Assembly (NCBI GenBank): GCA_004431415.1
Contig: QPMI01000095.1
Location: forward strand, 62,001-126,000
From: Cyanophora paradoxa CCMP329
Lineage: Eukaryota; Plantae; Glaucophyta
Reading direction: 5' to 3'
Length of the DNA stretch: 64,000 nt
Shown here: positions 1 to 37,000 of the stretch, piece after piece
How positions within the stretch are numbered: the first letter of the stretch is position 1
How the letters are laid out: the number at the start of each line of letters is the position of its first letter
The notes under the pieces: generated by a model
The model's input: the letters and a program-made list of their open reading frames with translations, nothing else
Told to the model about the DNA's origin: nothing
Database searches by the model: none
Position numbers and translations under genes: made by a program

Positions 1-648
1 CAAATGCAGGAGCTGCTTCCAGTTGATGCAGATAGAAATTTAACTAGATACTGGCGTTTAAGTGTTCCGCTGCCAGCTGCAGTTATGAGCAAGCTTGATG
101 ATGCCTCCCCTTCGAATATTTCTTATTTGATTTCCACGACTGATTTATGGCTGAAACAAACCGAAATAAATGCTAAAATAAATGCACTCTGCAGCTTTCT
201 ACTGGCGAACTACGACCTACTGAACGATGAGAGACTTATCATATCGTCTACCTTAACAGTTGAGCCGCCATTTGATGTCAACTGGTTTATAATTCCAGAT
301 GCAAACATCACAAGCAACGACTTTGAGGAATTGCACCCACCTTCTCACGTTCGACCTAACTCAACAGGGTTCCAAGGGGGCACTTTACCTAATCCCTGGA
401 TCAAAGTCGAGTTTCCTAAGCCTTTTGAGCTACATCAAATAATTATGTATGGGCCAGCCTTTGCCGCCGGAGTCCTATTTAATTTCAGCATTCTGACCAA
501 TTTAGGATATTTACGAGACGGGTCACTATTTGAAAATACGGTCCTAGCCAATGTGCTTGCTGCAAACCCATCTATGACAGGCTTCGAGCAAATGCATAGT
601 GACTCGCACTTGATCACCCACAGGTGTATAACTATGTGCAAATTATAA
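1..648 (+). CDS. Viral hypothetical protein, probably N-terminally truncated by the window; possible discoidin/galactose-binding-like beta domain
   Basis: Frame is open from base 1. The segment NPWIKVEFPKPFELHQIIMYG resembles the W-I-x-V-D-L...I...I motif of F5/8 type C/discoidin-like domains. Confidence 0.5.
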   Translation, partial: QMQELLPVDADRNLTRYWRLSVPLPAAVMSKLDDASPSNISYLISTTDLWLKQTEINAKINALCSFLLANYDLLNDERLIISSTLTVEPPFDVNWFIIPDANITSNDFEELHPPSHVRPNSTGFQGGTLPNPWIKVEFPKPFELHQIIMYGPAFAAGVLFNFSILTNLGYLRDGSLFENTVLANVLAANPSMTGFEQMHSDSHLITHRCITMCKL

Positions 649-701
649 CAAACGAATTTATAAATGTGAACGCGTTCCGGCTTGATTTCCGGGGACGTTA
701 C

Positions 702-1619
702 CTAAACTAGAAATTGCAGTTCACCAGACCAAGGCAGGCCATTCAGAGAGACGTCATCACCATCTCTGTCGACAATGCGCAGTCGCAGAGAGGTCAGCAC
801 CAGGCGCTCTTCGATGTGGATCCACTCGCCGTCATTTTCCTGATTTATATAAACGAACTTGCCAACATCCTGGCTCATCTGGATTCGAGCGAGCCCGTAA
901 TTACACATTGATTTAGCCCCACGGCGAAGCTTCGAAGCAAACGGCCGTAGCTCTTCGCAGACAAGGAAGAGGTACTGGTCGCTGTTCATGTCGATTATCT
1001 TTGGAAATTCGACGGCGTAACCAAGTGCTATACTCTGCATTCTTCCGGTGAAATCCACGCCGTACTCAGGGTGAGCAGGTGTCACTGGAATGCCAGCAAC
1101 CTCTAGATACCGCTCAGCTGCAGTTGCTGGTCTTTGCGGCCCTTCAAGCACAATAGGAGACAGCTGGAGGGGCTCATTTCGGTTCAGCCCGAGCAGATTC
1201 GATAAGGCTTTGAACTGGCAGGTCAGTGTGCAGGAACGGTTGCAATACGCAGACATTTTCAGCGTCTCTGGGTCTCGAAATAGTTTAAAATACGCAATTG
1301 AAATCCCTTCTAGCTCAATATTAAATGATAGGCCAAAGTTGTAAATATCTGTTTCGCCCAGATTTGCAGTCGTAATTATGCCAGGCTCAAACACCTCCAC
1401 GTTTTGCGTTCCAAGGTAGGGAAAGGTGATGGAAAGATACTCAGCTTTAATGCTGGTGTAAAGGCTGTTTGCGAACTCACACTGGGTTAGTCGAACAGCA
1501 ACTGGATTGATTATCGGTTCATTGATTTCGAGCACGAAGTTTGCCTCTGAATCGATTGGCCTTCTGTCTCTGCTGTCAAAGGTAAGCCTGGCGCAGCGTC
1601 GATGCTTGTCTTTGACCAT
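702..1619 (-). CDS. Minor capsid (penton-like, single jelly-roll) protein 1
   Basis: N-terminal LTFDSRDR...NFVLEINEPIINPVAVRLTQCEFANSLY and C-terminal LTSLRLRIVDRDGDDVSLNGLPWSGELQF match the pattern of PLV/NCLDV penton-like proteins. Confidence 0.75.
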   Translation of the reverse strand: MVKDKHRRCARLTFDSRDRRPIDSEANFVLEINEPIINPVAVRLTQCEFANSLYTSIKAEYLSITFPYLGTQNVEVFEPGIITTANLGETDIYNFGLSFNIELEGISIAYFKLFRDPETLKMSAYCNRSCTLTCQFKALSNLLGLNRNEPLQLSPIVLEGPQRPATAAERYLEVAGIPVTPAHPEYGVDFTGRMQSIALGYAVEFPKIIDMNSDQYLFLVCEELRPFASKLRRGAKSMCNYGLARIQMSQDVGKFVYINQENDGEWIHIEERLVLTSLRLRIVDRDGDDVSLNGLPWSGELQFLV

Positions 1620-1646
1620 TTTTATTCTCTAACTGATATAAAAAAG

Positions 1647-2603
1647 ATGCCTACGGACTACGTCTGCATTGCAAGTCACCAAGCGGAGGAGCTGACATCC
1701 ACCTCGAAATTTAAAGTAAGACTGCCTAAAGTTTATCAGGATGTGAAAGCCGTGCGCTTGGTATCAGCTGAGATCCCCAACACTATGAGCACAATCGATG
1801 TACTCGATCCGGCAGAGGATTTAGTCTTTAACACCTATATATATTGGTGCAAATATGATCCCACTAATGAAGGACCCGACCCACCTCAGGCCGGATTTGG
1901 AGCGTGGAATAACATTGCAATTCCACCTGGAAATTACGACGTCACCTCGCTTGTGACAGAGATAAACGAAAGGTTGACGGGAACAGGTATCACGTGCACG
2001 TATAATTCAGCGATCAAATTAATAGGGTTCACAGCTAACTTCGAGTTCTTTATTGCTCTGATGTTGCCAACGAACCAGGGTGGGCGGGAAGTCAGAAACT
2101 ACCAGGCCGTTGCAAGGGCTCAGCGAACTGCAAAGCTTCTAGGGCTGAGATCAATTCTACCGATTCGGTCAAAGACATTATCTATAAATACTGAATATAT
2201 AGCAGGCGCTTATGAGCCTGATGTCACTCCTGATGATCATGTGCTCCTACGAATTCCTGAAATTGGTGACCTTGTCAGTATGCCGAACACGTCAATACCT
2301 GGCTTCTTCTCGAAGCTGAGCATTCCAAGCGTCCTTCGTCCAGGCGAGATAGCATACTATGATTCAACTGAAGCACATCCTTTGTACAAGTATATTTATT
2401 CAAAGCTGGACCTCTACTCTGTGACTATTGAGATTTACGATTTTATGCAGCGAATTGCTGATTTAAATGGAGGTCCTGTCTCATTTATACTCGAAATTCG
2501 TTATGGCCCAGATGAACCCAATGGCGATGTTGTCTACGAGCTCGCCAAGCTTCAGCTCCAGAAAAGGTCAAAGACATATCCTTGGATCAATTCGTCAAAC
2601 TGA
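1647..2603 (+). CDS. Minor capsid (penton-like) protein 2
   Basis: ATG at 1647. Motifs FKVRLPKVYQDVKAVRLVSAEIPNT, IPPGNYDVTSLVTEINERL and SVTIEIYDFMQRIADLNGGPVSFILEI place it in the same family as 702-1619. Confidence 0.75.
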   Translation: MPTDYVCIASHQAEELTSTSKFKVRLPKVYQDVKAVRLVSAEIPNTMSTIDVLDPAEDLVFNTYIYWCKYDPTNEGPDPPQAGFGAWNNIAIPPGNYDVTSLVTEINERLTGTGITCTYNSAIKLIGFTANFEFFIALMLPTNQGGREVRNYQAVARAQRTAKLLGLRSILPIRSKTLSINTEYIAGAYEPDVTPDDHVLLRIPEIGDLVSMPNTSIPGFFSKLSIPSVLRPGEIAYYDSTEAHPLYKYIYSKLDLYSVTIEIYDFMQRIADLNGGPVSFILEIRYGPDEPNGDVVYELAKLQLQKRSKTYPWINSSN

Positions 2604-2733
2604 GTCGCCAGAGTCGCAGACAAGCCGAAGGCAAGGAGCCACTTGTGCTCCGCACAGCGACCGCTGCGCCAAGCTGGCTCGCCGGCGGCTAAGCGCTGAA
2701 TTATTTTCTTCCGTTTGAATTATAAACACTTCA

Positions 2734-4120
2734 ATGGATGTTACCCAGAACTTGCAACGTCTTGGTCTAAAGGAGCTGCTCACAACTCCGCAGGAAGCTA
2801 AGGATTTCTTTATGAATAACGAGCTTATGTTAGGTCTAACCAGCCAAACAAAGCCTGTGCGTGTCGTTGTCAACCCTAGCAATGACTATGGAGACTGCTT
2901 CGGAAAGAGGGTTACTTATTTCCTACCCCGTTACAATTTCCTTCAGGGGCTTGAACTCCAGTTTACCCTGCCCGAGCTGACCGCTTTTACTGGTGACACT
3001 GACCTGGTTCGCACTGGTTATCTGCGGTCTGTTGGTGCTCTTGTAAAGCGAATTGAAATCAAATATGCTTCCTACAGCTACATCGTCCCTGAGGACTGGC
3101 TTGTTCACAGCGCTCTGATTTTCAATGATGATGCTCAGCTCAAAAAGAAATACCGGTCAGGTGGCTGGCTACATGGAACACCACCTCAGGGGACAAATCG
3201 CACTGGAGGTATTTTCAGTGTAAAAATCCCCTGTCCATGGAGGGTTCTGTGCTCCCAATTGGTGCTCTTTCTGGCGAGGTGTCTGTCGAGGTTTGGTTCC
3301 GTGATCGTGCCCAGGGCTTTGTTGAGACCAGCTATGGTGGTAGGTTTGTAACGGAATATGCCATAGGCGGTGATGCGACTAAAGAAGATGGACTCGGGAG
3401 CGTGGGAGCCGCTGCTGCATCCCTGCAAACATCGGCCAGAATATAACTCCCAATGTCCTCACTGTCACTCCTGAAAAACCCGAGCTTTCGAATCCGAAGA
3501 TTATAGCTCACTGCATCAATGTTGATGAGGCCACTTTTGCCCAGGTGATTGAGAAAGTCAAATCTTCGGGGATTGCCATTCCCGCTACCGATGTCGGCTG
3601 GGTTGATGCTGATTCAATTACATATGCTGGTGCGGGAGCGCCCACCCGGATTAATCTGTCTCAAATCAGTGGACTTTGCTACGGTCTGTTCGTTAGCATT
3701 CGCAAACAGCCAAACATGAACCAAACTGACGGAAAACACAGTGTCCTCAAAACCGAGGCGAATACTCGTGATATCACTATTTCCTGCGAATTGAATGGCC
3801 AGCGGCTTTATTCAAACGAGCCTGTTCCTCTATTGCAAGGTGCTGAACTCATCGCTGATGTCTTCAAGTGCTCAAATCTCGACGCGCCTCTTAATCGATA
3901 TGTTCTGACTGGTTTGCCATTTTGCATTAGTGGGGATAAATCGATCCGAAATGCTGCTCAAACTGGTTTCGTAGATCTGACGAACTCGAGCAGCTGCTTC
4001 CTGAATATCATGAACCCTGCTGCGTATGATGCTAACAACAAGATTTACGTCCAAATTCGCGCTCTCCTGCACACTGTCCTAATTGTTGATGCTGCGGGTC
4101 TTCGCAAAGTTAACCTCTAG
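2734..4120 (+). CDS. Double jelly-roll major capsid protein (~462 aa after repairing two -1 frameshifts at ~3228-3231 and ~3421-3423)
   Basis: FGKRVTYFLPRY...LELQFTLPEL, GALVKRIEIKY and restored KIPL...VLPIGALSGEVSVEVWFR follow DJR MCP motifs. The three consecutive frames join, and the gene lies between the penton and ATPase genes. Confidence 0.8.
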
Positions 4121-4182
4121 AGAATCTGCTAATCTCGGTAGTTGGGCGCAGCCGAGGCAGCTTGTCTGCCGACTATTTTTTG

Positions 4183-4911
4183 ATGGATCAGTTCCAGCCT
4201 AGCGATATGAGGGTTCCATTCAAAGCCCTATTCATTTCAAAGTCTAATAGTGGGAAGTCTTTCTATTGCACAAAGCATTTGCTTCGACTGCTTTATCCAA
4301 AGATCAATCGCGTCGTAGTGTTTACGGCCACCAAATTCAATGGTGAATACTCTGCAATAACTAAAGAGCTTTACGACGATTTTCAGCCATCTATCGTTGC
4401 AGAAATCATTGATTCACAGCGAAATTTGATTGAAAACAAAAAGAAAGCGCCGCAGATATTGCTTGTATTGGATGATCTCGTTGCTGCCTCTGAAACTGTT
4501 GATCTGCGAAATAGCAAGACCGTTAATCGACTTTTTACACAAGGTCGTCATTTTAATATCAGTACGATTCTTATGACCCAAAAGCTTACAGCATTGAGTC
4601 AATCTATAAGATCGAACTCCGACTATTGTTTTTTCTTCAGTTACTCTAATCATACCGAGCTCGAGGCAATTTATAGAGAATTTAGTCATCTCCCGAAAGA
4701 TGAGTTTATTGCTTTGTTCGAGACTTGGGCGCATGATTATCAGTGCCTAGTCCTTGATGGAACGAAGTATGATACTGCCTGGTATGTTGATAAAGCTGTT
4801 GAAGATAAGAGTTTTCGTTTCTCTAAATGGCTAAGACAAGAAGAAGAGTCTAAAAAAGAAGAGTCTTCGCCTGTTATCTCTAAAAAGAAGCGTTTTAAAA
4901 TCTTAGCATAA
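4183..4911 (+). CDS. A32-like (FtsK/HerA superfamily) genome packaging ATPase
   Basis: Walker A variant SKSNSGKS, Walker B LLVLDD, and the A32 motif LFTQGRHFNISTILMTQ. Confidence 0.92.
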   Translation: MDQFQPSDMRVPFKALFISKSNSGKSFYCTKHLLRLLYPKINRVVVFTATKFNGEYSAITKELYDDFQPSIVAEIIDSQRNLIENKKKAPQILLVLDDLVAASETVDLRNSKTVNRLFTQGRHFNISTILMTQKLTALSQSIRSNSDYCFFFSYSNHTELEAIYREFSHLPKDEFIALFETWAHDYQCLVLDGTKYDTAWYVDKAVEDKSFRFSKWLRQEEESKKEESSPVISKKKRFKILA

Positions 4912-4920
4912 GAACAGAAG

Positions 4921-5553
4921 ATGCCACGTGGGATTCCAAGAAAGGGTTTTCGTGAACGAAGGGTGCTCCCAGAGCCAAACGCCCCTCTCATCGAAAGTGG
5001 TGCGACAGAGGGCGCAGCTGTTGCTGCTCCTAGCGGTGAACTAGCTAGTGACCCACGTCTTAATGCACCCGTTGCTAAAACGATCGCCTCGGCAGCAGCT
5101 AATGCCAGTGCGGTTGACGACCGACAAAGCCAGGTCAAAACTGTATCTGAAATGCAGTACGATATTGATGATGATGCTGCTAGAATTATCCAAGCCATGG
5201 CGTCTGAACCACGTTATTCAGGGCCGAAAATCAAGACAGCAACAGTGTCAAAAAGTCAGATTGACGAGTTGGCTGCCAAATTGCGTGATCTAGAAGCGAG
5301 GTCGGCTAATATCGAATCATATGTAAAAGATAAGCAAGAAAGAGCTAAGATCCGCGAGATGTTGCGAAGCGAGATGTTTAAGCACAGACCCATGGACGTG
5401 CCGGATTTGCGGTATCTGAAAAACGAAAAAGCTAAAGCCGAGCAATCGCTTGACTCTGCCGAAGTAAAACCTGCAACTCCAAATGTTTTCGAGCCAAATG
5501 TTACTGGGTCGCAGATGAAGAATGCGATGGGTGGCCAGAGGATTCGGTTGTAA
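4921..5553 (+). CDS. Viral hypothetical protein (basic N-terminus, Ala-rich, coiled coil); possible core protein
   Basis: Intact 210-aa ORF starting 9 bp after the ATPase stop; no recognisable domain. Confidence 0.6.
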   Translation: MPRGIPRKGFRERRVLPEPNAPLIESGATEGAAVAAPSGELASDPRLNAPVAKTIASAAANASAVDDRQSQVKTVSEMQYDIDDDAARIIQAMASEPRYSGPKIKTATVSKSQIDELAAKLRDLEARSANIESYVKDKQERAKIREMLRSEMFKHRPMDVPDLRYLKNEKAKAEQSLDSAEVKPATPNVFEPNVTGSQMKNAMGGQRIRL

Positions 5554-6070
5554 AATTCAGATGCAGAAATGGCTTATCCTCGGCGGACGTATGATGAAGG
5601 GCATAGGTGTCTCTGGCTTTAGCAGCAGCTTCAGCAGTAGTATAGTAGCCGATGTGTTTCCGATGTCCGTTTATCTGATAGTATGCTTTCCATTTACCAA
5701 GCTGCTGATTGAATGAAACACCAATGAAACCGCTGGTGTTTGTGACCCGCCGATTCTGGTTTAGAGTCTGCTGCCGCTTTGTTGCCAGTCGAAAATTTTC
5801 GCGTCTATTATCAAGTTTGTTCAGATTTATATGATCAACAGTTAAACCATTCTCCAACTCGCCACTGATGAAATTATGCATTCTTACCTTCTTACCATTG
5901 ATGATGGTTTTGGCGTATCCATTATCTAAACTCCAGCGAAATCCAAGCACACGATCAGCATCTTCCTGTGAAACAAGAGCATAAGCAATGATGACTTTGC
6001 GGCGATTGCGAATTCCACCAAGCGGGATTGCTACAGCGCCTTCAGGAACCTCTGGAATTGTGACTTCCAT
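5501..6070 (-). CDS. HNH endonuclease fused to an AP2 DNA-binding domain
   Basis: RMHNFI...VDHINLNKLDNRRENFRLAT (HNH) is followed by NTSGFIGVSF...GKWKAY...HIGYYTTAEAAAKARD...LNF (AP2). First ATG at 6070. Confidence 0.9.
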   Translation of the reverse strand: MEVTIPEVPEGAVAIPLGGIRNRRKVIIAYALVSQEDADRVLGFRWSLDNGYAKTIINGKKVRMHNFISGELENGLTVDHINLNKLDNRRENFRLATKRQQTLNQNRRVTNTSGFIGVSFNQQLGKWKAYYQINGHRKHIGYYTTAEAAAKARDTYALHHTSAEDKPFLHLNFTTESSGHPSHSSSATQ

Positions 6071-6120
6071 GTCTTTCTTTACAATCTGAGATTGCGATCT
6101 CTTTAAGCCTAGTTCAGAGT

Positions 6121-6456
6121 TCAAAAGCCCGGCCCATCCGCCTCTGATATCGATAAGTCCAGATCAAGGTCATCTGCTGGTGATAACTCCACATTTTGTG
6201 GCTGCGTAGAATTTTGGGCTGCAGCCTGAGCAATCCTAGCAGCTCTTTCTTTTTTGTACAATCCCCACATAATGTCTGGTTTTGTCTCTCGGATTAGCTT
6301 AGATGCCTTGACAAACTGAGCGCGATCATAATCACTTAGCCTGGCCCATCGACACAACCAGTGAGCATATGATGGATCTCTGAAAGCAACTTCAAGGTGT
6401 GTATGCCCTTTGTATTTCCCAATTCTCAGTATTGTCAGGCGCAGCGGCGATTCCAT
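6121..6456 (-). CDS. Small protein with a GKYKG...DPSY..WL motif (DUF3820/exodeoxyribonuclease X C-terminal-like)
   Basis: IGKYKGHTHLEVAFRDPSYAHWL matches the FGK(Y/H)KG..(E/D)..DPxY..W motif. Confidence 0.6.
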   Translation of the reverse strand: MESPLRLTILRIGKYKGHTHLEVAFRDPSYAHWLCRWARLSDYDRAQFVKASKLIRETKPDIMWGLYKKERAARIAQAAAQNSTQPQNVELSPADDLDLDLSISEADGPGF

Positions 6457-6543
6457 GATGCTTTAAAAGATAGAAATAAATCTCGTGATTCTAGCGCGAT
6501 TTATACCGCTTAAATAATTTAGATCCTTAAATGAAAGAGGGAA

Positions 6544-6822
6544 ATGGAGTCAGCGCAGCGTCGCAAACCAGGGCGCAAACCGATTGCTCTTACGCCAGAG
6601 ATTATTCAAGCAAGAAGGGAGAAGAAAGCAGAGTACCACCGCAGAAAATACAGCGAGGACCCTGCATATCGCCAGAGACACATTGAGCAGAGCAGCAGAT
6701 ATCAGGCTTCGCACAAAGATGCTCACAACGAGGCAAACAAGCGCTATCGCACTCGGTTGATAAATCGAATCTCTGTACTTGAGAGTGCCCTAGCTTCCGC
6801 TGGAATCAGCGTCTCGGTCTAA
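6544..6822 (+). CDS. Small basic, bZIP-like putative DNA-binding protein
   Basis: RRKPGRKP hook, a basic helix, and NEANKRYRTRLINRISVLESAL (basic region plus short zipper). Confidence 0.5.
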   Translation: MESAQRRKPGRKPIALTPEIIQARREKKAEYHRRKYSEDPAYRQRHIEQSSRYQASHKDAHNEANKRYRTRLINRISVLESALASAGISVSV

Positions 6823-8022
6823 GTGTCCTCGTGTTGCTGGGCGCAGAATAAGAGGCCTTCGCATTTTCAAAAGACGTGTACCACCGAGCTGTCGAACCTC
6901 CTGGATTTAACGCCTTGGTTCCAGCAGTAAGCAGCTGCTTTTGAACCCGGAGAAGTCTCTTATTTTTTTCGATGTCTGACTTGTCCAGATTCTCTTGCAT
7001 CAAATTCAGCTCCTGCTTTCGACGGCGAAGGGCATTCTGTGCAGCACTTCCAGCCCGCCGCTGCTCTGTCTCTGCTGGCACTTTCAGCAGCTGCTGGTAG
7101 CTCACCTCCTTGTCGTATCCAGCAAGCTTGAACTTGAGCAGAGGGCCAAATCCTCCTATAGCTTCAATCTGATAGACTTCTTTTGAGTACGTCGGCTTCG
7201 TTGATTTATCAAACGTGTTCCTCGCCAGCTTTACGCGCACAGAGTCTCCTACCTTGAACTCGGCCTCTTTCAGATAGTGCTGCTGCTCGTACGCCTCTCT
7301 CTGATAATCGTTTCTTGCAATAACAGGTGCTGGGTTCTTTGCTGCCTCATCAGGCGTAGTTTTAATAGCTCTATGCTCGGAGCTGTTATAGTTGCGCAGA
7401 AAGGATGGCAGCTTATCGATATATCGGTCGGTGTCGTACGCCTCCATGTATCTTGCAATGATCCGCTTCAGAGTACCATTAAAGCGCTCTACCTTTCCAT
7501 TTGCCTGCGGACGATGCGCCTCGACAGCATTGTGCTTTATCCCTCGGCTGCTAGCATAGTTGCAGCTGTAGCCTTGAATTCCTGATCCGTCTGAATGATA
7601 TCGGGCTTCACCGGAAAGCTTGCTATGAGCTGCCGCAGTGTCGAAAGCAGGGTCCCCTCGCTTTTATTTTTCATTGGGATGCTGTACGCTTTCCGGGTTA
7701 CAACATCCACAGCGTTCATGATGAAGTGCACTCCGCGGTTGCTTCTAGCATAGGGACTGACATCGATCAAATCCACTTCATAATACTTCTCTGGGTGATT
7801 ATACGTGATACTGGTGTACGGCTTCTCTTTCACCGGTTTTGCAAAGCGCTGAGCTGTGGACAGCTTCGCGAGCACTGCCTGCACCCTTGCCAGCGGCATC
7901 TTCAGCTTCTTAGCTATCCGTGCAGCTGACTGGAGCCCTGTCTCAGGATCATAGTAAGCATCAGAGATCGACAAAGTCAAGGTTGCCTTCTTGGCTGCCG
8001 CCTGTTGCTCGAACGTATTCAT
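6806..8022 (-). CDS. Polinton-type retroviral-like (rve, DDE) integrase (~405 aa after repairing a -1 frameshift at ~7541-7543)
   Basis: YYDP, EVDLIDV (D), IQTDQEF (D), restored PQANGKVERFNGTLK (E), YNSSEHRAIKTTP, and FKVGDSVRV...FDKSTKPTYSKEVY. Confidence 0.92.
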
Positions 8023-11000
8023 GGGGAACCGTGCTGTAATATTCGTCAGGAATAATCTTTCGTTTCGTATACTCCGTTTTGTTGAGTATTCGGCTGAATG
8101 GAATCTGAATTATAGAGCTGAAGTCGATCCCAGCATCGCGTTGCTTTCCATTGGGCTTGAAAACACGCGCTAGTTTAGAATCTAGTGTGCACTGCGGCTG
8201 ATAACGTTCCTCTAGCATCCTTGTGAAGGCCTCCAAAGCAATTCGGTTATCAAGGGATTCCTTCTTTGCCACTGGATCACTCGGGAGCCAGTTCTCCTCT
8301 ATCCAGCTCTTCGGAATTCCCTTTGCCCGCACATGCAGATCTGGTTCCCCATTCGACCTCACAAAGTAGCAGCAATAAACCTTTGGGCCAATGAAGTAAG
8401 CCTCAGTAATTCTCCCTTGGATGTCATAATCTAGTTTCCCCAGCTCGCTCTCGCAGATCATTCTATTCCCTTCCTCCTCTGACATTCCTCAACTGAATAT
8501 GGCTGCTTCATGCAGTCCTTCAGAAGCTCAGCAAACCTCCTGTGCACGATCATAGAATCTGTATCTGTGTAGTATGGCATTGCCTCTACGTCCTTATATG
8601 AGTTCATCCTCACCAAAAATCGATCCATGATTTCGCGGCTGTAGGAGAGGATAAATGCACCAACAAAGCAAGGCTTCGAAACGCAGGCATCCCGCCTATA
8701 CTCAGGGATCTCAAATGTGACGTACATTCTCGTATCATTCTCTATGTCAATGTCTGTAATCGTCGATGATCGCTGTATCTCCTTGAATCGTCTGTAGTTT
8801 GAGACCAGCTCGGTTGTCTCAATTACTGGACGCTGAGCAAATTTTCCATAGAGCCCATTCAAGAGGATCTTCGCCGTAGCATACTGGGCGGTCCCCTTTC
8901 GTGAGCGTGCTTTCATGCAGTACAGCTTCTCAATGTAATCTTTGAACATTCGTTCCTTGCCCTCAAACAAGTACACCTCGTGCAGCTCTGTGATCTCAAC
9001 TCCCAGTGCTATTGCCCGGTAGATATCGACTGAGGTGTACATTTCTTTCTCAATAGGCTTCAAGTTAGACCATCCCAGATTGGCTTCGTGGCGGGGAAGG
9101 GGAGAGAGCACAAGATCCTGAGGAATTTTAGCGCTAATCTTTGCAACAAACAGCTGTTCCATTTTCCTGCTCAGCATAAACTTGCGGAATCGCTCTAGCT
9201 CCGCTTGATCGGTGATGCATTTGAATTTACCAGTGGGAAAGTAATTAAAGTACATAGCCGTCGGATAGAGAGAGACCACATCCAGATCTACCAAGTAATC
9301 ATCTGGACCCTTCGAGACAAACTTCCGCTTGAATGGTAGGCATCGCCCTCCGTAAATCGCTTTGCGAAAAATCTGGTCCTCCTTGTATTTCGGTAGCAGC
9401 ACTTCCGTTTTCATCAGCTGCCTGTGGATCTGAAAAGCCATCGCCGATGCTGTCAAGGTGCGCTTCGAATTCACATTGATCCCAAATAGATCAAAACATG
9501 TCCGAGCGTACTTAATATACAGCTCAGTCATCGACCGAACGTCAGCTCTCAAATATTCGCTCCAGGCTTCCTTGTGAATCTCAACGTCATCCCACGCTCT
9601 TATCTTTCGGTGGTCAAAATCCCTTTCAAGGTGGTGCACCCGTAGTCCTTCCCAGCCTGCCGCAGTGAGCCCTGTATGTGCAAACAGGGGTCAAAGCTTT
9701 TAAACTCTCCCCAGCCAGCGTCTTCCACTCCATGCTCTTGATCTTTCCGGATGAGCGCATCACCTTGACCTGGCAGTCTGGGCGGTTCTGGACAAGCCAC
9801 TTATAGATAAATATCAAGTCGAAGCCGCTGCCATTGAAGAATACTAGAGTCGACTTTTCTTTCCAGTCGTCAAGCCAGAGCATAAACTGTTCCAGAGTTT
9901 CGGGGCCGCAGAACGATTTCGTTTCCGTGATCTCTCCTTTGCTAATTATGTCCATATCGACTGCGTACGGAACGTGGGTCGTGCGGTTGGGTGCAAACGT
10001 TTCAAAGTCTGCCGCTATGACTGAGTTTAGGGCTGTAAACTCTTCCTCGGGCTCGCATGGCTTGATTTTGCGTTCAATAACGCTCTTGTTCCTCACTGCT
10101 TCATCGCATTTGCTTGCATGGTCCTCCTTCGGATTGTAGGCGCAGCGGCAGGTATAGCAGAAGCGGCAGGTTTCCTTGTGAGTCGCCAAATCATACTGCA
10201 TCTTTCCGCAGGCTCTGCACTTCTGCATCTCGCACGTTCTCTTATCTTTAATTAGAAAGCAGTGCGCATCGACCACGCAAAGGTGGGCTCGGCGTTCAAA
10301 GCCAAATTCAGTTGAAAATAGGAGCTTGAACTTCGACGCGCTGCGGTCCGAGACCCACTCGAAAATGCTTGCATCGATTCTATAGTGCTGGCTCAGCTTG
10401 CGTATGGTAGGTTCATCGACTACAATTAGGCCCGTGGAAGCCCCAGCTGTGTGCGAATTGAACTGTAATCAACATGCTGAAGCTTCTTATATACTCTCTC
10501 AAGGTTCAGGCGACCGGGATTGAGCTTCTCATGCTCAAAGCATTCAAGCACGCAGTTGTCCTCTGGAGAGATCGGACAGTAGATCTTGTTCATCGTTAGA
10601 GCCTTCCCTCCAAAGGGCAGCTTAGGTACATTTCCCAGAGCCCCTGCTGCGTTTTCTGCGATAAGCACCTCGATCTGCACGACTGGCCAGACATCAGTGT
10701 CCTCGTAGGGCTGCTGCGCTAGCATCCAACTCTCCATCTTCTCCGCGAGATTTGCTAGAAGTGACTGCATCGTGCCCTCCTCTATGGTCGCAAGCTGCGT
10801 GCGGTACATGTGGAAATTCTCAAAATGAAAGCGAATTAAAACAGCAGCTCCAATCCTCTCTGGGATTCGCAGCTCATTCAGAAACGCTATCGTCAATTCT
10901 TTCACTCTCTCTGGATCAGCTGTCGGCTCTATCTCTATAATGTCCTTCGTGAAAAGCAGCCCTGGATACTCGTGGTGAGTATAGGTGCGAACTACGTTAA

Positions 11001-11331
11001 CGTTGGCCGATGCCTGCTCGCGGAATAGCCCTGATATAGCTTCCGCAACTTCATCAATCTCCTGTGTTGCTGCTGCTCGCGCAGCCTGCGCCCTCTCAAA
11101 ATGAGCGGCAACGTCTCGCCCGTACAGCGGACGCTGAGGCCTTTCTGTCCCCTGCAGCCTGAGCAGTGATGCTAGAGAGGATCGGAGTGTGTCAGTGTGG
11201 GTCCTGGTGTTTGAAAGAGGCCGCAGTAGCGAGTTCCTATACGTTGCATTAATGTAGCCTCGCTCATACAGCCTCTGTGCAAGCTCGTTGATTTCGGTTC
11301 TAAGGCTAGCTCTTACGGCTCGGGAGCTCAT
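7961..11331 (-). CDS. Protein-primed family B DNA polymerase (~1124 aa after repairing four -1 frameshifts at ~10431, ~9709, ~9621, ~8468)
   Basis: ExoI AADFET, ExoII FFNGSGFDL, ExoIII YLRADV, PolA DLDVVSLYPTAM, PolB KILLNGLYGKFAQ, PolC YTDTDS, PKVY and AKGI. The long N-terminal extension has Cys/His clusters. Confidence 0.93.
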
Positions 11332-11470
11332 GTTTCGATTAATGATACAATCAGAAAACTTTTTCGAAATTCAGCGCGCACAATCTCTGATTGATAACTA
11401 TCATCGCGTTTTCTTTAAGGCTTGCACAGCTACAGCTGAAGCTGATCACTTAAGTTGGCCGCGAGAGCTG

Positions 11471-11672
11471 TAAAAATAGGGGTATGAGACTTCTAGTATT
11501 TGTTTGTCCAGTTCCCACCGCAGCCGTTTGCTCTTACACTTCCCGACAATCGCTATCGATTTCTGTAACTTTTAAGTAGATTGTCGGAAGGTATAAAAAT
11601 AGGGGTATGAGACTTCTAGTATTTGTTTGTCGGAAGGTATAAAAATAGGGGTATGAGACTTCTAGTATTTGT
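11471..11672. repeat. Subterminal direct repeat array A (~46-47-bp unit; one partial copy at 11471 and two tandem copies from 11581)
   Basis: TAAAAATAGGGGTATGAGACTTCTAGTATTTGT occurs three times. Confidence 0.9.
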
Positions 11673-11674
11673 TA

Positions 11675-11957
11675 TAACTTTTGAAGTATTAGTCCAGATC
11701 TCCTATAGTCTTATTTTTATACTTCCCGACAATAACTTTTGAAATGTTAGTCCAGATCTCCTATAGTCTTATTTTTATACTTCCCGACAATAACTTTCGA
11801 AATATTAGTCCAGATCTCCTATAGTCTTATTTTTATACTTCCCGACAATCGATATCGCTGTAACTTTTGAAATGTTAGTCCAGATCTCCTATAGTCTTAT
11901 TTTTATACTTCCCGACAATAACTTTCGAAATATTAGTCCAGATCTCCTATAGTCTTA
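11675..11957. repeat. Subterminal tandem repeat array B (58-bp unit, four full copies plus one partial)
   Basis: Unit TAACTTTTGAAATGTTAGTCCAGATCTCCTATAGTCTTATTTTTATACTTCCCGACAA starts at 11675, 11733, 11791, 11861 (after a 12-bp insertion) and 11919. Confidence 0.95.
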
Positions 11958-12241
11958 AAGGATCTAAACGCGAAGCTGATCCTTCGTAACTAGGCAATAA
12001 GTAAGCTACAAACTGTAGTTGACTCTGTTTTTACTAAGTAACGTGCTGGCTTTCCCACAGTGAGGCTATATACATCGAGTTTGATCTTTGAGACTGGGTT
12101 TTACTGAGGTCGCTTTCGGCAGCCTTTGCTTTTTCCAGTCGGGCTAGATTCGTTCTTTGGTCCATTGTTTGGGTATTTCGCATTCATCCGATCTGACATG
12201 TACGTAGGCTGGATGTAAGAAGATGCACAGAGCCATCCCTA

Positions 12242-12370
12242 AATTCACTTTGCTGGCGTGGGTTGGGCACCTCCCCGGGAATTTCTAGTGCGGCGTCAGC
12301 CAAGATGGCTTCCTGCCTTCGGCCTCTCAGTGGACACTAGAATGCCTAAGCTCATACCCTAAAGTGAATT
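12242..12370. other. Nested inverted repeats forming a multi-branched fold-back
   Basis: AATTCACTTT (12242-51) pairs with AAAGTGAATT (12361-70), and TTCTAGTG (12283-90) with CACTAGAA (12335-42). Wobble-containing helices lie between them, with inner hairpins AGCCA-AGA-TGGCT and GCC-TTC-GGC. Confidence 0.65.
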
Positions 12371-12555
12371 CCCAATCAGCCTCAAAGGCTCTCCCGTTAG
12401 CTACCTCCTCGAAGCTAAATCGAATTTTATTTTTCAACCCCTAAGGTACCCACGCACACGCCCTCCGGCACGTAATAGCAGAGGGAAACGTGTAAAACGA
12501 TTTTGGTACACGCACGGCAAAATCAGATCGATCTAGTGAGGGGAAGACGCTAAAT

Positions 12556-12612
12556 ACCCATGGAACCGCGGCCCGGAGCGAAGCGAAGTGGCCGTAAGCG
12601 GGGTCCATGGGT
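12556..12612. other. Terminal hairpin of the viral element
   Basis: ACCCATGGAACCGC...GCGGGGTCCATGGGT imperfect inverted repeat enclosing GCGAAGC. Confidence 0.6.
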
Positions 12613-12620
12613 GTACAACA

Positions 12621-15600
12621 TGGATACATCTCGTCGGCAGACCTCCAAAACTGCATACCTTGCGGCGCTGGTGGGGTCATTTTGTATCACGCAAGTCGGC
12701 TTTCGGCTCCGTGTTTCGTACCTGATATGCCTTTCGCCCCAGGCACTTACCGAGGGGAGAACATGACGGACTGCCTGCCTGTGCCGTCTCGCTCCACGGC
12801 ACTCGCTGGCTCGCCTGTCTGGACGGTCTGCGATGCCGGCTACGTGGCCGACGGGCCGCGGGCAACCTGCATCCCGTGCCCCGCGGGTGAGACTCCGCGA
12901 GGTTTCCGGGCAGCTCTCGATCTCACTGCGCTCTGTCCAGGTTCGTACCAGGTCAACGATTCTTGCGTACTCTGCGAAACGAACTGGGTCTCTTCGACAC
13001 CCGGGCTGGACCGCTGCGATCCGTGCGACAATGGCACCGTTGCGGTTGCGAACGGCCAGTTTTGCGTCCGTGCGCACGATGCCGTCCCCCATCGCACGGC
13101 CATACGTGCTGAGAGCGAAGTGCAGCGTGCCTGCCTGGGTTCTACCGGCACGAAGGCATGGTCGAGTGCGAGCGGGCGCCCCGCGGGGCGATCGCGGCGG
13201 GCGGCACCCGCAACTACACGATGTGCGAGCGGGGGAGCCGGCCGGACCTGGAGTTCACCTCGTGCGACCCCTGCGAGCGGGGCACCATCGAGGTGGATTG
13301 GGAGTGCGTCGACTGCGTCGGTGCGCCCCGGCTGCCCTGTTCGATCCTCCTTTCTCCTCTTCAATACTGAGCGAGCGCCCAGGGCTGCTGTACGCCCCGG
13401 ATCGGGGAATGACGAGCTGCAAGACCTGGTGCGACTCCGGCGCAAGGCCTGCGCCATCGGTGGCCACGCTGATGCGATTTTCGCAGTGCGCCGGGGACGA
13501 TCCCCACCCCGGACAGACAGGGCTGCGCGACATGCTCGCGGGGATACTTCCGGTCGGAAAACATGTCTTCCTGCGAGCAGGTGAGCTGCTTCTCCTAGCG
13601 CTTAATTCCAAGTTTATATGACATGTGCGGCCTATCAGTGTCCGCACGGCGAATTCACGAGCGCGCCAGGCTCCTCGTCCTGCTCGCCCTGGTGCGACCT
13701 CTAGGCGACGTTTTCTCGTAGCTGTAGACAACTGGATGCGCGCTCACAATCTTGGCGGCGGCAGCCCGCGCGGGACCGAGAGCTCCCTGAACAGGGCCGA
13801 GTGCGACCTGTGCCGGGCCGGCTTCTACGAGCGGAACAGCACCTGCACACCTTGCAGGGTGCACGGGCGCCGAATAAACTGCTTATCCTTGTTTTCCTTT
13901 TAGCCCTAGCTGGCCTGACGCGACCGCAGGACGGCTTCTGGAGCGCGCCGGGCGCGTCTGCGTGCGTGCCCTGCCCGCCGGGCTACATCAGCAACGACGA
14001 TCGGTCCGGATGCCTGCCGTGCCGCGGGGGGACTTTCCGTGGAGACTCCGTGCGGCCGTTTCATTTCCTCTAGATCTGTGCATGCTCCGCGTATCCGCGT
14101 GTTCGCTGACTTGCCATGGCCATGGCAATCAATATCGCAGAACGCCTGCCTCCCATGCAAAACCGTGCGCGCTAGGAGTATGAGATGTGCACGTGATACC
14201 GTGCTTCGGGGCTGACGGGCACGCGGTTTCATGATCAGGGTCTCTGGTCCCCTCCCGCGACGAGCGGGAGCTGCCTGGAGCCGCCCTGGGGCCACTACGC
14301 GTCCAACGACAGCACGCGCTATGTCCCGTGCGACGCCGGCTTCTTCGAGTGGCTGCCAAAAAACGCGAGCCGCCCTCGGAAGTGTCTGCAGGTGCGCAAG
14401 CGTGCGTTTAATTTGCATCCCTCAACAAAAGCCGCCGTCCCTGGTTTAATTAATTTCTCTGCAGTGCCCGCTGGGGACGTTCGCTCCAAAAGAAGGGGCG
14501 TACGAGCGATGCTCGAACTGCTCGCTGGGTTTCTACTCTGCGCCCGATTTTCGGTCTTGTCTGCCGTGCCAACCGGTGAGGCCCAGCTTATCGCCAGCAA
14601 ATTTCGATGCGCGCGTGAAACACCGCTGACTGCCTGCAATGTTGTTTCTCGTTTGCAGGGCTCATACAGAGGCGCGAACCACTCCACCTGCCAGGCCTGT
14701 CCGACTGCGACCGTTGCGCGCCGTGAGGGAATGAAGCAGTGTGAGCCGTGGTGCGGGTCAGGATTTATGGCGTCGCATGTTCCACACGTGTTGTGTAGTG
14801 CACTATCGATATATCTGATTTCCGGTCGTTCGCGTCTCAGCCCACCGGGAAAGGTTCCGAGAAAGGACAGAGCCGAATGTGTCGGTGCGTTCAGTGGACG
14901 TACGCGTCGCATACACATCGTATCGAATTATATCAACGCCTTCAAATTTATTGGCTCGCTTTATTGCAGGCTGTGGAAGCGGCACTGCGCCCATTGGTGG
15001 GACATGTGTCCGTTGCGACTCCGTCTCTGTGGCATCGCCTGGAGGTTTGCGCTGTTTTTCTGTATTTGATTTCTTCCTTTGGGGGATATTTTCAACAAGA
15101 TTATTTTGCAGACGCGAATTGCGCGCCCTGCCCCGAGGGCTCCGTCGCAAACAATCTCGGAACGTCGTGCCTCGCCTGCGGCGTGTCGACCTACCGGCCT
15201 GCAGGCGCTGCGTCGTGCCTCAAGTGCCCCCGCAATACCGTCTCCAGTAACGGGAGCTCCTCCTGCACGCAATGCGAAGGCGGTTATGTAGTGCGTTCCG
15301 CGCTTAAATATGATGTTGAAATCGATAGGCGAAGTGCGCTAACACGAATTCGAACTTGCAATCGTCGAATTTCGCAGTCGGACGAAGCCCAGGCGGTTTG
15401 TGTCCCGTGTGCTCGCGGCCAGTACCGGAACGCTTCTATGGACTACTGCTCCCCTTGGTTTGCACCGCCCGTGCAGGCTTCGCTACTTGTGCTCAATTCG
15501 AAATTAAATGCCGCGCAGCCCGCCTGGCTTGATGGCGGCCAATGACGGCTCTTCTGCCTGCGTTCCATGCTCCGTCACGCAGCTCTGTCCAAGTCCGTCC

Positions 15601-18573
15601 GCTTTGCGCTTGCGGAATACCAGAGTATTTTATATGATCTTTCGAATTTCTGACGACGTGTGTACGTAGTTGGCACGGCCGACCCCGTCGAGATCCCTCA
15701 GTACGCGGACGTCGTCGGGAGGATTCAAGAGGCCGTCATCGAAAATCGGGACAGTCTTCGGCGCAGGCGAGCAGTCCGGTGAAATCAAGAGCTTGAAGCC
15801 GTCGCGCCTCGTAAACGCGGTCGCCGCAGGCGCCTGCTCCAGTACGCCATCAACTCTTTTGTGGTGGAGACTTTCGCGACTGACACGGTCAACGCCACCA
15901 TCACGCGCCCCGTGCGCTCTGCGCTCCAGTTCCGATCATAAAGATTTCGAGCTGACGCACCTACGCAGGCGATCGAGGACGAGTCCGTCGCTTTCGCGCG
16001 GCTCTACCGCATCGTCCTCTACATCGCGGCCGGCGTGGCCGCCCTCGTCATCGCCGCCGCCATCGCCGTCTGCGCCCAACTGAAGACCGCGTCTGAAGAG
16101 CGCGCTGCCGGGCGCTACCGCCAGGTCCGAGGCTCGGCGGCGCCTCATTTCAGCATGCGAAAATAAAGACCAATGCAATTGCTCGTTCTACTGTAGCTAG
16201 CTCTAGATCTGAGCTGTCCGGCAGGTCGCCAAGATGAACTTTCTATACCGTGAGGTGGTCGACCAGGCGCTGGAGGAGCGCGAGGAGCTGGAGGCGGCGT
16301 CGGGCCTGCTGCGCGCCGCCGGCTCCGTCTTCGCCATTGCTGGCCTGGGCCTCCTCGCGGTCGCGGCGGCCTTTGTCATCTTGCAGTACATCCTGGCCAA
16401 CTACACGGTCTGAACGATCCGAAATGTGGTGATGCTCGCAGACCAGAGTACTGACATCGGCTTCAATTCGCAACATGTACAGGTCGTGCAGACTCTGCTG
16501 GGCGGAGCGTCCCCCTCGGCGGGCAACATCACGGGCGTCTTCGCCGTGCGGGCCGCCTTCGTAGGCTACCCCGGGCCCTGCATCGTGCGGGGCTCGGCAG
16601 CCTTTCCGGACCCCGAGAGCGCGCTCGGCGCCGCCGCTGTGCTGGTCGGCGCGACGGCCTCTGTCCGCGGAATTGCACCTGCCGGTCTCATGGCCAGTCA
16701 TCCGGGCCCGCAGCTGTCCGCACTATACAACGAGACCCAACGGGCGTGCATGTGCGCAGCTTTGAGAGAACTATTTCCATTGCGTTGCAATTGCGAGTAA
16801 AATCTCGCCAAACAGAGTGGAATGGCTGTGCCGGGAATGCGAGCTGTCGGCCGCGACGAATGTCTCCATCGAGCTCCGCCTTGTGTCTCGGATGGCCCTT
16901 GCCGTCGCCGTCACGTACAGAATCGAGGTGTGTGCACCACATCGACGAAAATCAACTTGCGATTGGCCTCGCACTCACGGGGCCCGGCCTCAGGTTCCTA
17001 CCAACCTGACGATTGAGGGCCGGGTCCGAACGCGATCCGACGCGAGACTCGGCGCCTTCCGCGGTCTCCGGCCCGTCGTCGCTCCGCTCTCGCTTATCCC
17101 GCTCCACTTCGACGTGCGAACGCCCCTGCCCAACGCAAGCGGCAGTGCGGCTCATTAGATATTCGATCCGTGTTTCAATTTTTTGCTTACAGGACGCTCG
17201 CGATGGGAGCCCGCGGTACGACACGTCGCTCTGGCCGTCGTCGAACGAGGCCGCCGAGGTCGAAGAGGCGTCCTTCGTGCGCCCCGTTCGATTCTCAGAG
17301 ACGTGTCCGAAACTCTCTCGGGGTCCTAACCCGCGACGGGCCGACAGAGCCTGTGCTCCGTGTCTCTTCCGTTGTCGGACCCGTCCTGCGCTGGCGAATC
17401 CGTCGCTTTTCGCGCGGCCTTCGAGCTGAGCGACCTCCACGTCAGGGTGCGCGGCCCGGCCTGCAGCTGCAAACGTGGCGCCCGCGCAGCGTCGGCCGCG
17501 GAGTCTGACGGCGGCTCGGGCAGGTGAGCCGGGTGGAGCGGGCGTCGCTCCTGGACATGCTGGCGGACCTGTCGGCCCTCGGCGGCAGCGCCGTCGACGT
17601 CGGCTGCCAGATGCTCCTCGCCTACATCGCCGTTCTGCAGCTTTTGCAGGCGAGCAGCGCCTGTCCCGTGCGGTCCTTCATTTCCACGTCTAGATCTGAG
17701 CCGGCCTCGCAGCGGTACCCGCGGTTCGCGAAGTACATAGCGGGGCGGGGGGCGCAGCAGGCGGCCCTCGTCGACGCCAGGAGCTCGCGGACCTCGTCGC
17801 TGCCGGGCTCGAGCGACCGCGAGGGCCTGGGCGCGCTGGCCCCCGGGGCGCGCACCCTCGTCGTCGCGGACGTCGGGGAGGGCATCGGGCTGCAGCTCGC
17901 GCGGTCGCCGCTGCCGCGGGCGCAGTCGTGGGCGGCGAGGGCGCGCGCCTTCCTCCAGCGCCGCGGCTCCAGCGCCGGCTCCGCCGCGAGCGCCTCGTCG
18001 GCCCCCGCCTGCGAGGCGCCGCCCCGCTCCGCCCTCTCCGCCGCCGACGCCAACATTCCGAAGGCGGCGCCGAAGGAGGTCCAGCTGCAGCCCGCCGGCG
18101 GATTCGCGAACCAGGCGCTGTGGGAGGGCGCCGGCCCGAGCTCGAGCTCGGAGGCGCTGGCGCTGGAGCTGGAGCTCCCCCCCGACCTCGAGGCCAGCTC
18201 CTCCAGCTCGGGCGCCGTGCTCGCCTCGAGCGCCGCCCTCGCCTCCACCCGCCAGAGCTCCCTGCCCCCGGAGCCCCTCAAGGGCCCAGGCGGGCCGCCC
18301 GCGCCGGACCTCGAGCTCCCTAGGCCTCCGGCCCCCGCGGCGCCCCCGGAGCGCCGGCAGCCGCCGCGCTCCTTCGAGCTCGACGCGCCGGCGCTCAGGG
18401 GCGCCGCCCGCGCCCCCTCCAGCGCCAGGTCGCTCCCGCTGGGCCGCGCCGTCGGGCTGGACCGCGCCCTGGATCTGGACCTCCCTCCCGCGGCCGCGGA
18501 CGCTGCAGCCGATCGTGATCGATATCAGCAATCGAATGCACGCCCGATACGTTATGATCGATATCGCATCTAG
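12621..18573 (+). CDS. Host multi-exon gene (5' part missing or displaced): many Cys-rich GCC2/GCC3- or TNFR-like repeats followed by transmembrane segments
   Basis: Repeated exons such as GYISSADLQNCIPCGAG, CPPGYISNDDRSGCLPCRGGTF and CAPCPEGSVANNLGTSCLACGVSTY. Hydrophobic segments at ~16010-16075, ~16320-16395 and ~17560-17650. Exon structure and 3' end are approximate. Confidence 0.7.
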
Positions 18574-27900: not shown

Positions 27901-28218
27901 GAGGAGTTCGTCCGAGATCGTGCTGCTGGTTTTTTCGCGCTTGTCGAACTCCTGGCACGCCACGATGCAGATGTCCCGCAACCGAGCGATCTCTCTCGCG
28001 CCGAACTTTTTCGAAGCCGGGGTGTAGCGCTGTATACGCGAATGCAAGAAGCTTAAGCTTAGCAAACGATTATTCACTATAACTATGTAATATCACGTAT
28101 ATTCGAGTTTAAATAGCTCTCGAACCTGGCTCCCTCGCCAACAGAACCGGGGCTTGACTTGTTCGAACTCACGATCGTAAGAAATTGAATTCGAGCTCGA
28201 GGCGGCCGCCACGGCCAT
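21930..28218 (-). CDS. Spliced gene encoding about six tandem divergent AP2-like repeats; 3' end not resolved
   Basis: ATG at 28218. Joined exons give repeats such as GVSERPYGFQGSFRWRGDQ|ITTAYCATEE|GALRIRDRLAIIC, KGVSLPKGRSNYIGVFQWRDRNFSTSGSRDAE|ETARMRDKIIMTCQW...MLNF, and SGLKGVWQ...YWRGRVHWHRKNFYAASSDDPT|EAGRARDRVIICCQW...ELNF. Confidence 0.65.
25076..25868. repeat. Internal exon duplication in the multi-AP2 gene (25076-25288 similar to 25655-25868; 25383-25550 similar to 27879-28032)
   Basis: Near-identical DNA CACGAGGAAGTCTCGGACAGCGTGCCACGGGTTCTGGCC...GCGGATCGCCTGAACGAAGCCTT and shared splice-site context. Confidence 0.85.
25937..27865 (-). mobile_element. 5'-truncated non-LTR retrotransposon-like insertion in an intron
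   Basis: T13 at 25937-25949 is a poly(A) tail on the minus strand. An 11-bp TSD TAAATACAGTA sits at 25926-25936 and 27866-27876. There is a 3' stem-loop at 25956-25980, no introns, and strong purine/pyrimidine strand skew. Confidence 0.85.
26053..27865 (-). pseudogene. Retroelement ORF remnant: C2H2 zinc finger and long Pro/Ser-rich tail, split over two frames
   Basis: CPICGKNFQSSADRDRHVRADKH in ORF 27099-27884, which overlaps the Pro-rich ORF 26053-27249 carrying duplicated RARSPYLLR. Confidence 0.6.
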
Positions 28219-35135: not shown

Positions 35136-35484
35136 CGCTGCGCCTTCGGGTCGTCTCTCCGGCGCGCGGGTGCCCGGGCGGCTCCAACTAGCTAACTCGC
35201 TAGCTGCCGACCGCCGCTCGGCCTGCTTTCAAACTATGTTGCTCCGACGGTCGTAGCGGAGCTCGCGGGTGAGCTGTTGGTCCGCCCGACGTGCGCTGCT
35301 TCGGCTCGGCAACACGGTCGATTTGCCGGGTACGCGACTTTCCGCTCAAACATTGAACCCGGTCTTCCGTCCTCGTCGGCGCCTGTCCTTAAGCAAAGCC
35401 CGTCAGTTCGTCTCTAGCAACAGGAGAGATCCAGCCGGCGGCGACCGGAGCTCTTCGAGCGGCCGTTCGAATAGTAGCTCCGGC

Positions 35485-36588: not shown

Positions 36589-37000
36589 CTGCACTGCCGC
36601 AGGCGGCATCGATCCATGCCCGCTCGCCCGGGCCGGGCGGCGAGATTTAGGCAATGCAGGCTTTCGTTCTTCTTTGAATTTCCAACCAGACACTCTCTCA
36701 ATGAAGATTACCTATCGCTCGCACCTGCTCTAGAACATCATAATGCCAATAAAATAAGATCCGCAAGCCTTGAAGGCACAATATGCGCGGCACTAGCGAT
36801 ATACGATCCAACTGCAAGGATCCATGATCCGGATCGATATCCCGCAGGCGCTCCGGATGCGCTCCGGAGGGGTAAACTACGACTGGGACTACCGTAGAAC
36901 AGCAACTGAAGAGGACCAAAGCACTAATTCTAATCGTAAAGGAAAGAAAAAAGAGATCACAAGCGCGGGACGAACCAGGGAAGAGGAGAGCGCTGGGCGG

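Follow-up and report, generated by a model that had tools for sequence, protein, structure and literature searches.

A probable endogenous Polinton-like virus, likely intact and in about eight near-identical genomic copies, in Cyanophora paradoxa or a close relative

What is the compact block of genes that fills the first 12,620 positions of the stretch studied here, and is it still intact? We analysed 64,000 nucleotides of contig QPMI01000095.1 (assembly GCA_004431415.1, positions 62,001 to 126,000 of the forward strand), which we call the window. Positions 1-12620 form a low-GC block (GC 0.469, against 0.62 just beyond it and 0.72 farther into the host flank), and open reading frame (ORF) spans cover 96.5% of 1-11331. 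With considerable confidence we read this block as the right portion of an endogenous Polinton-like virus (PLV), of which the genome has about eight near-identical copies. The element is likely intact and recently mobile, and its host is probably Cyanophora paradoxa or one of its near relatives. Direct support exists for the gene set, for the double jelly-roll (DJR) fold of the capsid family, for a precise end at 12620, for the depth of the copies and for the flanking host DNA. The first ORF has no start within the window and short-read contigs extend past position 1, therefore the element continues leftwards beyond the window. Its features and the adjoining host gene are listed below (aa, amino acids; MCP and mCP, major and minor capsid protein; E, E-value).

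1-648, plus strand: ORF open at its 5′ end; its motifs, judged by eye, suggest the C-terminus of a patatin-like lipase and, after it, a discoidin (F5/8C)-like domain
702-1619, minus strand: likely mCP (penton) 1, 305 aa; similarity of 0.97-0.98 in ESM Atlas to the clusters of DUF5901 and Sputnik V18/19, with a recognition score of 2025
1602-2603, plus strand: likely mCP 2, 333 aa, start maybe at 1647; ESM Atlas 0.97-0.98 to DUF5901 and Sputnik V18/19 (mCP) clusters, recognition score 2149
2734-4120, plus strand: MCP in two pieces, with two frameshifts in the window (one near 3420)
4183-4911, plus strand: A32-like packaging ATPase, 242 aa, Walker A/B; PF04665 at E 8.8e-10, 38.9 bits against a cut-off of 22.8
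4921-5553, plus strand: 210-aa protein without assigned family, sub-threshold matches only
5501-6070, minus strand: HNH-AP2 homing-endonuclease-like gene; HNH_3 (PF13392) E 1e-9, PF00847 E 1e-4 (below cut-off), phrog_99 E 2e-34
6121-6456, minus strand: ORF of 111 aa in which a short motif resembles ExoX-C (PF20600, E 7e-5, under the cut-off)
6544-6822, plus strand: 92-aa basic ORF, possibly DNA-binding; weak phrog_19880 match, E 0.002
6806-8022, minus strand: rve (DDE) integrase, about 405 aa, in pieces 7537-8022 and 6806-7531 (rve/rve_3), with one frameshift near 7540
7961-11331, minus strand: DNA polymerase B (pPolB), protein-primed, about 1120 aa, with four frameshifts near 10430, 9708, 9620 and 8486
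11458-11957, no strand: subterminal arrays with repeat units of 46 bp and of 58 bp; the two kinds of unit are related but oppositely oriented
12320-12620, no strand: candidate terminal inverted repeat (TIR), ending in …ACA (5′-TGT on the minus strand), with a hairpin at 12554-12614
12621-15545, plus strand: host gene with Cys-rich ephrin-receptor-like repeats, at single-copy depth; PF07699 E 3.5e-6 at 14877-15542, but no better than E 0.03 at the junction

The polymerase matched DNA_pol_B_2 (PF03175) at 8461-9690 with an E of 9e-49, as well as the phi29 and tectivirus polymerases, and its layout comprises a likely terminal protein, Cys/His motifs of OTU-like type, a pair of zinc knuckles, and Exo and Pol domains. 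The integrase matched PF13683 above the cut-off and PF00665 at E 5e-6, and the nearest matches to the ATPase were 30-38% identical. What we take to be the Exo I-III, Pol A-C, DDE and Walker motifs were all located in the respective proteins. The motif order of pPolB, read against the terminal protein-vOTU-Exo-Pol order described for the polinton-type polymerase (Krupovic 2024), suggests that its N-terminus is likely a terminal protein followed by a viral OTU domain. No Ulp1/adenain maturation protease was recognised by Pfam among the 16 ORF pieces, which cover the visible right part of the element, and none of Mriya48, HUH endonuclease or VLTF2/3 was recognised by Pfam in the window, Mriya48 having no profile in that scan. 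Beyond AT-richness, no promoter word was common to the upstream regions of 10 genes. The initial annotation, made from the sequence alone, had described an integrated PLV; the gene set, the GC contrast and a junction contig at host depth in all four DNA runs bear this out. From its gene list, pPolB, rve integrase, A32 ATPase, DJR MCP and HNH-AP2 are present, and the two pentons are likely, with support from a protein language model. The word 'full' used there for the modules, like the missing protease, refers to the visible right part of an element that is cut by the window start.

We then considered the capsid protein. The N-terminal piece of the MCP is 72% and the C-terminal piece 62% identical to P0001, a protein of the C. 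paradoxa proteome and the sole full-length match to the C-terminal piece. The window MCP forms a subfamily distinct from P0001. Among 1.84 billion representatives, six proteins scored: P0001 itself, four true relatives (one Logan protein at 38% and three ENA proteins at 27-30% identity) and a bacterial repeat protein, P0003, which we discarded as a chance match. A profile search brought in no additional protein, and PDB sequence searches with the MCP and its profile gave no significant match. With four relatives in such a collection, the family is very isolated.

The fold was modelled on P0001 (pLDDT 66 from an 8-row alignment and 34 from the single sequence). The model is a double jelly-roll, with a VIA Z of 29.8 to the PBCV-1 capsid (root-mean-square deviation 3.3, 355 residues aligned), 27.8 to faustovirus, 19.5 to STIV and 19.4 to PRD1; the MCPs of nucleocytoplasmic large DNA viruses (NCLDVs) overall gave 23-30, and Foldseek reached E 1e-18 to iridovirus and PBCV-1 MCPs. 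A virophage-type MCP was not indicated, the same model giving a Z of 16.7 to Sputnik and 16.6 to mavirus against 23-30 for NCLDV MCPs. Structure prediction thus agrees with the MCP assignment, and the window MCP is predicted to be a double jelly-roll through the fold of its 62-72% identical relative. A PLV in the broad sense is recognised by a DJR MCP, an A32-like packaging ATPase and an mCP; the element has the first two, the DJR MCP by the fold of P0001, and has two candidates for the third. We rejected the NCLDV-first ranking as a sign of special kinship, since no Polinton or PLV MCP was among the PDB rows listed and the pattern is generic. As reported by Bellas et al. 2023 (PMC10120064), a likeness to NCLDV capsids is general among MCP models of PLVs and Polintons, and the NCLDV-style MCP motifs singled out at first are therefore not distinctive.

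Polinton-like viruses are common in protists. Its nearest MCP is already listed: P0001 is the protein of row 106 in Table S2 of Bellas et al. 2023 (456 aa, tig00020904, HHpred 98.5% to an iridovirus MCP; PMC10120064). That table set counts 366 MCP matches in C. paradoxa, about 7% of the genome by its authors' estimate, in cluster 21 (272) and cluster 29 (94), both flagged 'new' and bearing no group name; virophage clusters hold none of them. However, the main text and supporting information PDF do not mention Cyanophora, and a gene map, ends and copy structure do not appear in the consulted parts of that paper. The C. paradoxa genome itself is described as 99.94 Mb, 67.6% GC, intron-rich and PacBio-assembled; the MCP match, the GC content and the intron-rich flank of the element point to this alga or a close relative as the likely host. 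Complete C. paradoxa PLVs are also in the collection of Bulzu et al. 2025 (PMC12220804), where discoidin, with or without patatin, is reported from some glaucophyte PLVs and most PLVs lack a protease, as does the visible part of our element; yet, in the sections consulted, these PLVs come up in passing and their lineage is undescribed. Divergent variants of the proteins of a feces-metagenome MELD virus are noted in C. paradoxa contigs by Starrett et al. 2021 (PMC8502044), and the three ENA relatives of the MCP may, as we infer, be of this kind.

The NCLDV-related PLVs of Bellas and Sommaruga 2026 (Zoravirus VC102, VC218, Zephyrvirus and Alpenseevirus; 10.64898/2026.06.19.733378) have PLV-sized genomes with an NCLDV-like capsid module, rve integrases commonly in VC102 and VC218, and pPolB and lipase in some Zephyr members, points in which our element may be likened to them. 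No Mriya48, HUH or VLTF gene was recognised in the window. The main text of the 2026 PLV framework papers does not name Cyanophora, and their supplements may place this MCP. Scans of IMG/VR with the ATPase, pPolB and P0008, and of JGI metagenomes with P0001 and P0008, returned no locus; such scans detect close relatives only. Our literature search, outside which most subscription papers lie, found no dedicated description of Cyanophora Polinton-like elements. The initial suggestion of a poorly described lineage therefore holds in part: MCP relatives are few and the clusters unnamed, but the MCP family had been mined in Bellas et al. 2023 and the elements are mentioned in two more papers. The lineage is catalogued but unnamed and undescribed, and we found no placement of its MCP family.

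Could the element be a bona fide Maverick/Polinton, of the class Polintoviricetes, with its protease gene left of the window? We consider this unlikely. pPolB and rve integrase occur together and the polymerase has the polinton-type domain order, which speaks for it, and an A32 ATPase, a DJR MCP, mCP candidates and a TIR-like end are further likenesses to Maverick/Polintons. In the visible part, unlike in Maverick/Polintons, no protease was recognised and the penton candidates are two and divergent. However, Table S4 of Bellas et al. 2023 (PMC10120064) gives no Mavpol label to clusters 21 and 29, into which the C. paradoxa MCP matches fall, an indirect difference drawn from cluster labels. The end also differs: the element reads TGT from its terminus, and neither AGT/AG/ACA repeats nor the vertebrate Maverick motif (AG)3, (AGT)2 or (AC)3A was found there. 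Moreover, the replication and capsid modules of these viruses are reported to reassort freely, so that pPolB plus integrase does not fix the class. The element is Polinton-like in its working, and its membership of Polintoviricetes is not established by the gene content in the window.

Three traits that had been proposed as marks of a separate lineage lost weight in these comparisons. Two mCP genes also occur in Trimcap B PLVs (10.64898/2026.06.19.733378), a cysteine protease is a core gene in just one major PLV group according to the 2026 PLV framework, and TGT ends are described as typical of Gypsy-type integrases, such as those of Ginger elements, though they are unlike vertebrate Maverick ends.

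To return to the endogenous PLV that we favour, its copy number was estimated from the short-read contigs of four DNA runs (four studies; host depth 84, 116, 38 and 58), aligned to positions 1-16000. The contigs of the pol/integrase block stood at 7.7-11.8x host depth, as would about eight genomic copies, and the terminal 300 bp or so at 13.8-14.5x in all four runs. The end is thus about 1.2-1.9 times as deep as the block (14x against 8-12x), and one end only lies in the window. These ratios, alike in the four runs, fit fixed genomic copies with two ends each, and their stability across four studies fits genomic copies better than a replicating free virus. The check on copy number therefore came out at about eight near-identical copies. 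The capsid half is more diverse and deeper, with single contigs at about 13-25x host depth and with loose ends and strand-switching joints at intergenic points such as 701, 2604, 2655 and 4120-4179. This suggests that gene neighbours vary from copy to copy, which agrees with the module mosaicism described for these viruses. Positions 11928-12306, which separate the pol block (8x) from the end (14x), stood at just 2.6-3.4x, which points to subterminal variants among the copies.

Frame-by-frame translation revealed seven frameshifts in three core genes (MCP two, integrase one, pPolB four), breaks that the initial annotation did not report. At each of them the short-read contigs have one additional base, next to a run of 2-4 C or G, and six of the seven insertions were found at full depth in all four runs. 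A 3134-nt and a 2129-nt contig of the pol/integrase region, together 5.2 kb, differ from the window solely by five gaps, with zero substitutions. There are no in-frame stops in MCP, integrase or pPolB apart from those the shifts cause, and the CpG observed/expected ratio of the element, 0.88-0.98, shows little decay. Since all seven breaks match one-base differences in the contigs, they are likely assembly errors and the element is likely intact; such frame breaks in other elements have been reported as assembly artefacts (Bellas et al. 2023, PMC10120064).

The opposite view is that the frameshifts are real and the locus is a decayed, immobile copy, a fossil of a family with active members elsewhere. 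It can appeal to the number of breaks in core genes, to contigs that merge about eight copies and lose rare variants, and to the break near 3420, whose matching insertion is seen in three of the four runs at about half depth. Against it stand the form of the breaks, every one a one-base deletion at a C/G run, the pol/integrase region free of substitutions, the lack of other in-frame stops and the CpG ratio, and we judge a decayed copy to be very unlikely.

The right end of the element was examined in the same contigs. The multi-copy contig stops exactly at 12620 in two of the four runs and at 12608 in the other two, and a contig covering 12593-13184 spans the junction without mismatch at 0.9-1.0x host depth in all four. 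This contig carries 28 element-side letters, fewer than the tool's 31-letter bridging rule, and we infer that an overlap of this kind would be expected where a graph branches at the end of a repeat. All 20 DNA runs listed, which are all of one organism, contain 95-96% of the words of 6000-15900, on both sides of the junction. That a chimeric assembly joined a free or contaminant virus to host DNA is scarcely credible: the few element letters in the junction contig and the much greater depth of the element than of the host would fit it, but the error-free joining at host depth in four of four runs, the depth ratio stable across studies and the words shared by all 20 runs do not. The host reading frame begins right at the junction with a Cys-rich repeat, in an intron-rich flank, so the virus was likely inserted into an exon of the Cys-rich gene.

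Several points weigh against an intact, integrated PLV at this locus, beyond the half depth near 3420 and the short junction overlap. The left end, the second TIR and the target-site duplication lie left of the window. The evidence consists of DNA sequence, contig depth and models, and the fold was modelled on P0001 and not on the window MCP itself. The contigs collapse copies, so that alleles of the window's own copy are not phased, and there are many sites in the capsid region at which the window and the deepest contigs disagree. Finally, the penton, terminal protein, OTU and lipase/discoidin calls rest on weak evidence or on the look of their motifs.

The terminus is structured, as initially noted: the hairpin at 12554-12614 has a z of -3.16, and none of 200 shuffles was equally stable, while for five further stretches, intergenic or subterminal, the predicted folds were no more stable than those of shuffles. 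It sits in a pPolB-encoding element; in Halocafeteria, such terminal palindromes are reported mainly with non-pPolB elements.

The two penton candidates have no match in Pfam, PHROGs or PDB sequence searches, and their recognition scores lie below the tool's mark of 2300; their similarity to mCP clusters in the language-model space suggests that they are likely pentons. BLASTP between them gave no significant match (20.8 bits), and therefore they are not recent duplicates. They lie head-to-head, with starts overlapping or nearly touching at 1602-1647 and no separate promoter space. For ORF 1-648, no match was found in Pfam, PHROGs, NCBIfam or PDB, and its product is likely an entry protein. 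Discoidin, alone or patatin-fused, is reported in PLVs, with 11 cases from glaucophyte PLVs (Bulzu et al. 2025, PMC12220804).

How would such an element live? On the Polinton model, the rve integrase would have linked the two ends, TGT…ACA, to host DNA, in this case within an exon of the Cys-rich gene. Once excised, the linear genome would be replicated from its ends by pPolB, with the terminal-protein domain at the polymerase's own N-terminus as primer; the OTU-like domain would release that primer domain by cleavage. DNA would be packaged by the A32 ATPase into an icosahedral capsid built of MCP trimers, with pentons at the vertices, and the lipase/discoidin protein would help the virus to enter. 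The chances that the element depends on a giant-virus helper are close to even. In C. paradoxa, repeats and virus-derived genes are reported to be methylated and mostly silent, and giant-virus insertions occur in the genome. Because C. paradoxa methylates repeats and viral genes, the element is, by analogy, likely silenced by CpG methylation in culture. No RNA run was listed among those that carry the words of 6000-15900. In four RNA-like runs (three samples, two studies), only a 71-nt piece from the pol N-terminal region was found, at 86% identity and in two runs; the host flank gave short partial matches only in the same four runs, so that there was no positive control and the blank is uninformative.

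The locus itself is unsurprising, as endogenous PLVs are routine in protist genomes and already counted in C. paradoxa, and about eight near-identical, likely intact copies mark recent mobility. A culturable glaucophyte with giant-virus insertions and methylation of viral DNA is a practical system for reactivation tests, and an MCP family nearly without relatives in current collections, for which the consulted parts of the 2026 PLV frameworks gave no placement, is a loose end for virus taxonomy. A bolder reading, which we find unlikely, is that the Cyanophora elements form a deep glaucophyte-associated lineage of class level, placed in the PLV tree towards Nucleocytoviricota and marked by two pentons of ancient divergence together with pPolB and integrase of polinton type. 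On this reading the present subfamily would be intact, would have transposed recently and could be reactivated, for instance through demethylation or a giant virus. If true, it would provide a culturable glaucophyte virus in a model alga, and virophage-like defence could be tested in the third lineage with primary plastids.

Some further observations concern the capsid side. A motif, GACAAGC…GCTGCGCC, flanks the capsid genes at 1590-1610 and 4145-4166 on the minus strand and, loosely, at 2619-2670 on the plus strand; there are two exact matches against 0.02 expected, for a pattern picked after being seen. Short-read joints switch strand between 2655 and 4179 in three of the four runs, and the motif may serve in regulation or mark a point of recombination at which the copies diverge. 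In the spacer between penton 2 and MCP, 2619-2641 is a 23-nt inverted match, with four mismatches, to 12306-12328 at the inner edge of the candidate TIR.

In the host flank, a host-depth contig in all four DNA runs omits the 301 bases at 13499-13801 and has other letters between; the Cys-rich repeat gene perhaps has a paralog there. Positions 22001-28000 form a second island of low GC (0.51), possibly another mobile element, which includes a Pro/Ser-rich and strongly skewed frame (26053-27321), a weak match to a C2H2 finger, and direct repeats of 135 nt and 98 nt. Farther on, a host gene at 35257-36733 has a weak match to Nse1 of the SMC5-6 complex (E 0.0035).

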